From an uncultured Verrucomicrobiae bacterium (lineage in GTDB: Bacteria; Verrucomicrobiota; Verrucomicrobiia; Limisphaerales; UBA11358), in the NCBI GenBank assembly GCA_963738225.1, contig CAVTVR010000011.1:131868-195867 (forward strand): 64,000 nucleotides of DNA, in the 5' to 3' direction. The position numbers and the translations under genes were made by a program. The notes beneath the pieces are model-generated. The model made no database searches, was not told where the DNA came from, and saw nothing but the letters and a program-made list of their open reading frames with translations. Below are positions 38,501-39,957 of the stretch, one piece after another. Numbering within the stretch: position 1 is the stretch's first letter; each line of letters starts with the position of its first letter.

Positions 38501-38723
38501 GAGGGAGGGCGATTTTTGACGACAGTAACCCCCGCACTGTTATCCATTGCCCAGTTGCGCCAAACCTTCTGAATGTCCCCAACTTCCTCATGGCTTATGC
38601 GAATGATTTATTGATAACGACGATAAAAAAGTCAAGCGCATAGCTCATAATGACAATCAAAGTCGAAAGAATGACAAGAAACGGTGAGTTTGCCGTTCAC
38701 AAACTATCAAGGTAGCAACGGTC

Positions 38724-39653
38724 TTAAACTGCAAGCGGTTTGAGGAGGCTGTTTAAGTGGATGATGAGATGACGCATCAAAGCGACGAGGGCGACTTTTG
38801 GGGCCTTGCCCCGAGCGATGAGGGATTGATAGCGGATTTTCAAGGTGGGGTGGTAACGGCTGGCGACCAGGGCGGCCATGTAAAGTGCTTTGCGAGCCAA
38901 GGGTCTGCCGCCGCCGATGAAACGTTTGCCCTGCCAGCGGCCGCTTTCCCGGGGATGCGGAGCCACGCCTGCCAGCGCGGCGGCTTGTGCCCGGTTGAGT
39001 TTTCCCAACTCCGGCATTTCGGCCAGGAGGCTGACGATGGTTTTAGGGCCAACGCCGCTGACCTGCTGGAGGCATTTGGCTTTGGTCTGCAGGGCGGCAT
39101 CCTGTTGGAGCAGGGCCTCGATTTGCTTTTGGAGTTTTTGCAGGTGGGCGCGCAGTTGGCGCAGGAGCGCGGCGTTCTGTTTGCGCAAAGCCGGCAGCGT
39201 CAAGTGGCGGTTTTGCTGGATCACGTTTTGGGCCATGGCCTGGAGTTGAAGGCGATGGCGGGTTAGCTCCCGTAAGGCGGCGGTGTTGGGGTTTAGCGGA
39301 GCTTGCGCGCGCGGGGCGGTTTGCCGGCCAAACTCGGTCAGCAGAGCGGCGTCGATGCGATCGGTCTTGGCGCGCAAGGCACAGGCCTTGGCGAAGTGCC
39401 GGACGCGGGCCGGTTCCACGATGGCGACGGGGATGCCGGCCTGGTGGAAGGCGGTGACGAGGGCTTGCTCATAACCGCCGGTGGCTTCACAGACCACCAA
39501 GAGCGGTTGGGCCAGGGCTTTTAATTGGGCCATGAGTTTGCGATGACCTGGGCGGGTGTTGGGGATCGGGAAGTTTTGGTTTTGGAGGTTAACCTGGAGA
39601 GAGTCTTTGCCAATATCCAGGCCGATGTAGATAATCGAATTGTTCGTGCTCAT
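38724..39653 (-). CDS. IS110 DEDD recombinase/transposase
   Basis: IGLDIGK, VCEATG, KTDRID (D-E-DD); GVGPKT; RESG serine; GGR..ARKALY. Start placed at MSTNN. Confidence 0.95.
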
Positions 39654-39830
39654 CCTTGTCATGCGAGCGCGTGAAGGTTTAACTTCCGGCTCAATCAACG
39701 GTTCGAGTTAACGGACGGTGAGCCGGCCCGATCCAGCTACCCACGTTCGCGATGACCACACCTGAACTTGGGACGGACGATCTGGGCCAGCTCGCTTGGG
39801 TTGCGGTTGCAACCGCAACCCAAGCATCTG
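39654..39830 (-). ncRNA. Predicted IS110 bridge RNA
   Basis: 5' hairpin (perfect 32-bp palindrome 39794-39825); target loop closed by the 39720-33/39779-93 stem, carrying GTCCC and GGTAG; donor loop carrying ACCGTTG and ACAAG. Confidence 0.85.
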
Positions 39831-39868
39831 TATTCAGCGAAGAATCCAGACGAATGACAAGATACAAG

Positions 39869-39957
39869 GGACAGCGCGCTGCGCTGTCCGGCGGTAAAGC
39901 GCCGGAATCATTGCGCCCGCGATACGGGCGCGGACGGCGCAGCGCGCCATCCCTACC
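39869..39957. repeat. Right part of the IS110-interrupted family-A REPIN
   Basis: GGACAGCGCGCTGCGCTGTCC...GGACGGCGCAGCGCGCCATCCCTACC. The left part is 38691-38715. Confidence 0.88.

Follow-up and report, generated by a model that had tools for sequence, protein, structure and literature searches.

The 64,000-nucleotide stretch analysed here (hereafter the window) comes from an uncultured Verrucomicrobiae bacterium (assembly GCA_963738225.1, contig CAVTVR010000011.1, positions 131,868 to 195,867) and carries, on its minus strand, an IS110-group element. The element consists of a long non-coding left end, a recombinase gene and a very short right end, and stands directly against the hairpin of a repetitive extragenic palindromic (REP) sequence (Table 1). 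A sequence-only reading, made with no database searches, had described this locus as an IS110 element with a readable bridge RNA for its own REP target and its own ends. Every sequence statement, coordinate and word of that reading was rechecked, and all are correct: excision of 38716-39868 joins GGTAG to GGACAGCGCGCTGCGCTGTCC, the AG/CT core is present at both ends (38714-38715 and 39867-39868, AG on the plus strand), and the non-coding end of 215 bp lies at 39654-39868. The analysis presented here supports that description, and the element is very probably a complete IS110-group insertion sequence with a bridge RNA aimed at the REP tails of its host.

The source genome (3.34 Mb in 16 contigs, 77.7% complete) holds three copies of the element, located in the window (contig C11), on contig C13 and at the start of contig C7. 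These are 100% identical over 1153 bp, with the exception of a single extra base in the C7 copy. In the two copies with complete flanks CT is found at each junction, and the third copy, at the contig start, shows AG before the element. All three lie between GGTAG and GGAYRGCGCGCTGC..., which on the recombinase strand reads as a REP hairpin ending in YRTCC, CT, the element, and CT-ACC. Rather than occupying unrelated sites, 3 of 3 genomic copies share the same REP-tail target. Intact REPs are present in the same window (GGTAG plus hairpin at 3248-3273, hairpin plus CTACC at 12260-12285), and the left flank, 38691-38715, agrees with the reverse complement of 1344-1368 at 23 of 25 positions, as had been claimed. 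The latter segment belongs to a paralogous, unoccupied REP hairpin (1323-1368), where CC replaces CT and the 25-nt flank matches the right-target side at 23/25; the REP plus its flank seems to form a longer repeat unit. The layout of the right end, with the stop codon followed by ..ACCGTTG-CT, is common to most relatives. The donor of this element is flanked by a 3-bp AAG/CTT repeat only, and long terminal inverted repeats are absent.

Table 1. Coordinates of the element, its predicted RNA and guides, and related features (window positions unless a contig is named)
Feature	Position	Strand	Remarks
Whole IS110-group element	38716..39868	-	1153 bp with one CT core copy counted; ends set where copies and flanks diverge
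Left end	39654..39868	-	215 nt, non-coding, including CT core; encodes the predicted bridge RNA
Recombinase coding sequence	38724..39653	-	309 aa; ATG at 39653, stop at 38724
Right end	38716..38723	-	8 nt downstream of the stop codon; left donor (LD) GACCGTTG
Second CT core copy (AG on plus), right-end junction	38714..38715	-	
Right donor (RD) TGTATCT	39860..39866	-	Immediately inside the core
5' stem-loop	39794..39825	-	32 nt; 14-bp perfect stem, 4-nt loop
Target-binding loop module	39720..39793	-	Outer stem 39793-39779 / 39733-39720; inner GUUC 39767-39764 / GAAC 39748-39745
Donor-binding loop module	39649..39707	-	Outer CUC 39707-39705 / GAG 39651-39649; inner GAGC 39692-39689 / GCUC 39668-39665
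Left target guide (LTG) CCGUCC + core positions CA	39769..39776	-	Same sense as left target (LT); REP tail CCGTCC-C matched perfectly
Right target guide (RTG) GGU + AG	39737..39741	-	Reverse complement of CT-ACC
Left donor guide (LDG) ACCGUUG + core positions AU	39694..39702	-	Equals the final 7 nt of the right end
Right donor guide (RDG) ACA + AG	39655..39659	-	Reverse complement of CT-TGT
Right target (RT) ACC	38711..38713	-	Kept at occupied and free REP sites
REP hairpin with LT CTGTCC	39869..39889		LT = 39874-39869 on minus
Adjacent, oppositely oriented REP, free hairpin-CT-ACC target	39932..39957	+	LT CCATCC
Y1 transposase (PF01797) matches	C7:292884-293246, C13:91366-91713, C7:66020-66361, C14:113648-113992, C8:179561-179902, C9:163952-164293		

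The recombinase matches the Pfam domains PF01548 (7.1e-26) and PF02371 (1.4e-16), and scores 196.2 bits against the NCBIfam equivalog NF033542, 'IS110 family RNA-guided transposase', whose cut-off is 140. Over its residues 6-297 it matches the solved IS621 transposase (8wt6, E=1.6e-34), and it also matches the ISCro4 transposase (9t56, E=1.6e-31). D13, E56, D98, D101 and S237-G238 align with D11, E60, D102, D105 and S241-G242 of IS621, where D11, E60, D102, D105 and S241 with G242 are described as the catalytic residues (Hiraizumi et al. 2024, PMC11208158). All four acidic residues of the RuvC-like DEDD domain (N-terminal PF01548) are present, and the Ser-Gly pair is kept in the C-terminal PF02371. 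A longer frame of 324 aa could start at a TTG codon; the ATG start is preferred because it fits the N-termini of the relatives and a Pfam domain starting at residue 10. To judge by these alignments, the protein is an IS110-group DEDD/serine recombinase.

The genome offers this recombinase a set of similar targets. Of its 43 TCCCTACC sites, 31 have a hairpin in the 21 nt ahead of CT, with at least 8 of 9 pairs formed. The last six bases of these hairpins are GCGTCC (8), CCGTCC (7), CCATCC (6), CTGTCC (4), ATGTCC (3) or GCATCC (3), and the base that follows ACC is variable (A 20, G 7, T 3, C 1). Among the occupied sites, that of the window copy ends in CTGTCC and those of the C7 and C13 copies in CCATCC. 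The loop word CCGUCC fits one REP variant perfectly because CCGTCC is one of these six endings, and a G-T pair could accommodate the A of CCATCC; CCGUCC and GGU-AG face ..YRTCC-CT-ACC in 3/3 copies. The effective target, CCGTCC-CT-ACC, comprises 6+2+3 = 11 bp, the same length as the 11-bp target given for IS621, ATCAGGC-CT-AC (Durrant et al. 2024, PMC11208160), and so the new specificity that the sequence-only reading had called short is not unusually so. As for other elements connected with REPs, six Y1_Tnp (PF01797) matches exceed the cut-off in this genome; a relation between REPs and REP-associated tyrosine transposases (RAYT) was not borne out, the REP hairpin studied here not being found within 1.5 kb of the best four of these matches.

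The guide words reported previously for the left end (GTCCC at 39770-39774, GGTAG at 39737-39741, ACCGTTG at 39696-39702 and ACAAG at 39655-39659) are all located where they had been placed. The RNA of the left end would fold into a 5' hairpin, a target loop and a donor loop. In the first loop, LTG CCGUCC(CA) and RTG GGU-AG would read both strands of CCGTCC-CT-ACC, and in the second one LDG ACCGUUG(AU) and RDG ACA-AG would read the joined ends, GACCGTTG-CT-TGTAT. By analogy with IS621, the element would be excised as a circle, whose joint between right and left end (RE-LE joint) would become the donor, and a recombinase tetramer holding one RNA would exchange strands at the CT core, with insertion at the base of a REP hairpin as the outcome. 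Words of five bases within 215 nt are weak evidence on their own, and the model was therefore tested on relatives of the element.

A scan of one genome per species yielded 450 stretches encoding a relative of the recombinase, of which the best 80 (37-51% protein identity) were used. They belong mostly to metagenome-assembled genomes of Verrucomicrobiota, with a few bins of other phyla; in the host genus, 3 of 36 other genomes were matched at E<=1e-30, with a top identity of 49%. The stop codon of most relatives is followed within a few bases by A[CA][CA][GA][CT]TG-CT, and the seven bases that precede the core are found again, with the same orientation, 33-96 nt upstream of the start codon. The alignment set (44 distinct sequences) was selected by the exact LD 7-mer upstream, with the omission of L042, L066, L070 and L074, which are too short, of L071, which has one LDG mismatch, and of L094, whose right end was misplaced by the pattern. 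Left boundaries were set by a guide-independent motif and verified by comparison of copies where copies exist, and in multi-copy relatives both boundaries were fixed by comparing copies.

Guides and flanks covary across these 44 relatives, which is the check that the sequence-only reading had proposed for homologs. With a one-base shift allowed in both target tests, LTG agrees with its own LT at 5.69 of 7 positions, versus 3.36 off the diagonal (29 distinct guides from the 32 loci with a left boundary), and RTG with its own RT at 4.89 of 7, versus 1.86 (28 distinct guides of 44), values that 0 of 10000 permutations reached in either case. LDG agrees with LD at 7/7 positions in 44/44 relatives, and five LD variants (ACCGTTG, ACGGTTG, ACCGCTG, ACAGTTG and ACAATTG) are mirrored upstream. 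The second base of RDG before the core follows the second base of RD, with C, U or A standing opposite G, A or T: RD TGT is found with (A/G)CA-AG, TAT with GUA-AG and TTT with AAA-AG. A family of at least 10 copies occupies the site hairpin-GCCGCC-CT-ACCAACG with LTG ..GUCGCC-CU and RTG CGUUGGU-AG; in this multi-copy relative, the boundaries of which come from copy comparison, RTG CGUUGGUAG is opposed to RT ACCAACG. Two sister families have the RT TCGTC and the RTG GACGA-AG in common, and their LTG, UUCAUCGU versus UUCUGCCU, tracks their LT, TCATCGT versus TCTGCCT.

This joint variation bears on the proposal that the loop-flank matches are due to chance, with the protein or the shape of the REP hairpin picking the site and the fold acting as a translation regulator in the 5' untranslated region. 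In its favour, each guide match of this copy extends for only 3-7 nt beyond the core, and a given 5-mer would turn up by chance about 0.2 times in 215 nt. The start codon is overlapped by the closing helix of the donor loop, as would fit a role in translation, and the ISPpu10 preprint (10.64898/2026.03.19.712850) reports that the target hairpin is also required. However, flank and guide change together over 28-29 distinct guide sets, in a way that none of the 10000 permutations equalled, and the LD variants are mirrored exactly, whereas a translational role or a hairpin requirement may add to RNA guidance but cannot replace it. Chance is accordingly a very improbable source of the matches, and the reading of the left end as a bridge RNA is supported because the covariation is clade-wide, and not by the 5-mers alone.

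Two further features were observed in the left ends of the relatives. In one subgroup (L030, L033, L035, L038, L039, L045 and L065) the left end is about 200 nt longer, reaching about 400-446 nt where a boundary was found; the extra part holds a conserved GGCGAGCGTAGCGAGCC word within a long inverted repeat, and these elements combine RD TATATG with RDG GUA-AG. Among six copies from one genome (L089-L093 and L095), the left end of L095 is 19 nt longer, with an unrelated stretch in its 5' part, and its right flank is TTGTA, not TCGTC.

The fold of the left end is conserved across the relatives. It was derived from the 44 distinct segments of 185 nt, running from 100 nt before LDG to 84 nt after it, for which RNAalifold gave a consensus of 26 pairs, 21 of them with compensatory changes; the addition of two inner pairs resulted in 28 pairs in 6 helices. 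Paired bases fill 90.9% of 1211 cells over the 28 pairs and 44 sequences, versus 28.8-40.0% in controls with the partners slid, and the covariation score is 0.558, versus 0.066-0.113 in the slid controls, with 0 of 500 shuffles as high. Changes on both sides are found in 22/28 pairs. Pairing in the helices of the target module (1-4) amounts to 79.5-95.5% of cells, 16 of their 17 pairs showing compensatory changes, and in those of the donor module (5 and 6) to 100% and 92.4%. The consensus thus presents a target loop between an outer and an inner helix, followed by a donor loop between CUC/GAG and GAGC../..GCUC. A strong 5' hairpin of variable sequence is located in the same place in 42/42 relatives with enough upstream sequence. 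In the window element, the perfect hairpin described earlier as 32 bp was confirmed at 39794-39825 (32 nt with a 14-bp stem), as was the outer stem of the target module formed by GAGCUGGCCCAGAUC (39793-39779) and GAUCGGGCCGGCUC (39733-39720). The minimum-energy fold of the single sequence is very stable (z -8.5), and was not relied on.

Several observations weigh against a functional bridge RNA in this element. The guide matches of the window copy are short, with LTG and LT agreeing at 5/7 positions and RTG extending only 3 nt beyond the core, and the pairing of RDG past ACA-AG is weak (3/7). A perfect CCGTCC is found at 0 of 3 occupied sites, while it is present at 7 of the 31 free REP hairpin-CT-ACC sites. 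The single-sequence fold pairs part of LTG with RTG and draws no donor loop, which appears in the consensus only. An Rfam scan of 38000-40500 with E up to 10 returned only chance matches, the presence of a bridge-RNA family in Rfam 15 not having been checked. The LDG count of 44/44 is favoured because the set was selected by the exact LD 7-mer upstream. In L071, the one LDG mismatch could be accommodated by a U-G wobble. The left flank of L094 is a ..GCAACC-CT target, typical of a different subgroup, that misfits its own LTG (UGCCCU-CU); its right flank fits its own RTG, and L094 is possibly a hybrid or recombined copy. The extra C of the C7 copy (G000:C7:3-1156) shifts the frame over the last ~44 recombinase codons; this frameshift may be real or, because it lies 142 nt from the contig start, an assembly error. 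A stricter promoter scan found none on the minus strand. No circle junction, RNA ends or empty site were seen, the data on circles and RNA ends being Logan contigs only, in which starts, ends, strand and circles are not visible.

The search for an empty orthologous site was based on the pyrH-side flank, which matched in 56 of 60 other genomes of the same genus. In the 7 best loci, homology begins about 130 nt to the right of the element; the left flank was not found there, so that these loci offer no empty site for comparison. For two of them (L100 and L102) the sequence preceding the match was read, and no REP hairpin of this type was seen.

Part of these observations would be expected of a genuine IS110 element that is now immobile, its three copies being relics whose guides no longer drive insertion: there are only 3 copies for 31 free targets, one copy is frameshifted, LTG is perfectly matched at none of the occupied sites and carries CA, and LDG carries AU, rather than CU at the core, and neither a circle (in the Logan contigs) nor an empty site (in the best same-genus loci) was seen. 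Nevertheless, the identity of the copies over 1153 bp argues for recent copying, all five catalytic residues are intact, the same kind of core mismatch is found in multi-copy relatives (the family of at least 10 copies has the LDG core CC), and close relatives occupy different ..GGA(C) sites in other metagenomes (X8 and X19). Loss of mobility is consequently unlikely. Regarding the earlier description of the element as an intact and probably active RNA-guided recombinase, its intactness is borne out, while its activity is something that we infer from the identity of the copies, the full set of catalytic residues and the 31 free REP targets. Transcription and circle formation would likewise be expected of the preferred bridge-RNA element.

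Candidate promoters were found in a looser scan. The RE-LE joint of the two ends would create TTGCAG-17-TATCTT, which matches the promoter consensus at 7/12 positions, and in 14 of 32 relatives the corresponding joint reaches at least 8/12; an internal TTGTCA-17-CTGAAT matches at 8/12, and its start would fall near the 5' hairpin. The stricter scan placed a promoter-like TTGCCA-17-GATAAT (10/12) on the plus strand at 39607-39635, within the 5' part of the recombinase gene, from where it points antisense through the bridge-RNA region. Among the sequencing runs, RNA-library contigs of a close relative (X19) cover 39526-39872: a contig of 171 nt spans 39653-39823 with 4 differences, and a second one passes beyond the left end, at 39872, after which its sequence is unlike that of the window. 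The library may contain DNA, and these contigs are a weak hint of transcription; the lack of RNA-library cover over other parts of the coding sequence carries no meaning. The DNA contigs of X8 derive from a relative of 90-96% identity with another flank after 39871.

The relatives also allow traits of the clade to be distinguished from those of this copy. The core positions of the left guides, noted before as CA and AT, were confirmed (CA and AU). Among the 44 relatives, the LDG core is CC in 18, CU in 8, AC in 5, AT in 4, AA in 4 and others in 5, whereas the cores of the right guides, RTG and RDG, are AG in 44/44; the LTG core is CA in the window element and L061, and CC in six relatives. Because they recur in relatives, the core mismatches represent a clade trait rather than a peculiarity of this copy. 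In IS621, by contrast, each of the four guides is described as pairing with the core (Durrant et al. 2024, PMC11208160). Directly 3' of the RTG core, 44/44 relatives have a C that is complementary to the last LD base, itself invariant, as would be the case if this C acted as an IS621-like handshake guide. For the handshake guide of the donor-binding loop, agreement with the last LT bases at the first position is found in 8 of 14 distinct pairs, a value equalled by 183 of 10000 permutations, and over the two positions taken together in 11 of 28 (42 of 10000); this agreement is suggestive and is not used as support.

The closing helix of the donor loop, CUC/GAG, is present in 44/44 relatives, and its GAG is formed by the G of ATG and the AG of codon 2 (39651-39649). 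The word AUGAG is retained even by those relatives whose gene begins further downstream, with a stop placed after AUGAG. With the start codon inside this helix, translation may be shut off when the guide in the same transcript folds or is captured by the recombinase, as a built-in autoregulation. Left guides without core pairing may be permitted in the clade, and recognition may extend to the REP hairpin 5' of the core, which may also, along with the T-rich start of the element, terminate read-through into it. That the clade differs from IS621 in all of these respects, with core-free left guides, autoregulation through the start-codon helix and a REP hairpin that is co-recognised and serves as a terminator, is a tentative and rather doubtful proposal when taken as a whole. 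On the minus strand, the REP hairpin (39869-39889) followed by the T-rich element start (39859-39868, CTTGTATCTT) has an intrinsic-terminator-like score.

The element does not change the known mechanism, of which it is a good new example. It would represent a natural bridge recombinase from a phylum distant from the Proteobacteria, the group studied to date, with all four guides, target and donor readable from sequence, and its 44 relatives, which vary their guides in step with their flanks, are a source of orthologues for enzyme engineering. They also offer natural rules on guide lengths, tolerated core mismatches and handshake positions, and the element itself shows that the association of IS110 elements with the CTAC tail of REP hairpins is not confined to E. 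coli and Pseudomonas. In the literature searched, no paper joining 'bridge RNA' and 'Verrucomicrobi' was found, and the supplementary tables of Durrant et al. 2024 may list the clade; this work predicts bridge RNAs in 85.7% of the IS110 elements in ISfinder and names REPs as targets (PMC11208160).

Among the known systems, the closest likeness is with IS621 from Escherichia coli, as described in PMC11208160 and PMC11208158. Both hold a DEDD and Ser recombinase, a long left end, a short right end and a CT core, and in both the RNA is ordered as 5' stem-loop, target loop and donor loop, with LTG in the same sense as LT and RTG complementary to the core and RT. They also share an effective target of 11 bp, insertion at the ..CC-CT-AC.. 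tail of REP hairpins, and a base 3' of the RTG core that complements the last base of LD. Despite these similarities, the two are distant in sequence: the recombinase has 309 aa here and 326 in IS621, the right end is only 8 nt here, the target word and the host, a member of the Verrucomicrobiota, are different, and the left guides mismatch the core (CA and AU), which IS621 pairs in all four guides. The start codon within the closing helix of the donor loop is a feature observed in the element studied here and its clade.

Other members of the family exhibit partial similarities. ISPpu10 from Pseudomonas putida, according to the preprint cited above, is also a bridge-RNA IS110 element that inserts beside genomic hairpins in intergenic repeats. 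The element studied here has as its left target the 3' arm of the REP hairpin itself, directly 5' of the core, and its RNA is predicted to hold a 14-bp 5' stem-loop, which that of ISPpu10 reportedly lacks. On the other hand, elements of the IS1111 group and ISPpu9 belong to the same recombinase family, and some of them target REPs (PMC11208160). Unlike the Verrucomicrobiota element, where the RNA is located upstream of the gene and the right end comprises 8 nt, these are described as encoding their RNA in a long right end that follows the gene, together with long subterminal inverted repeats.

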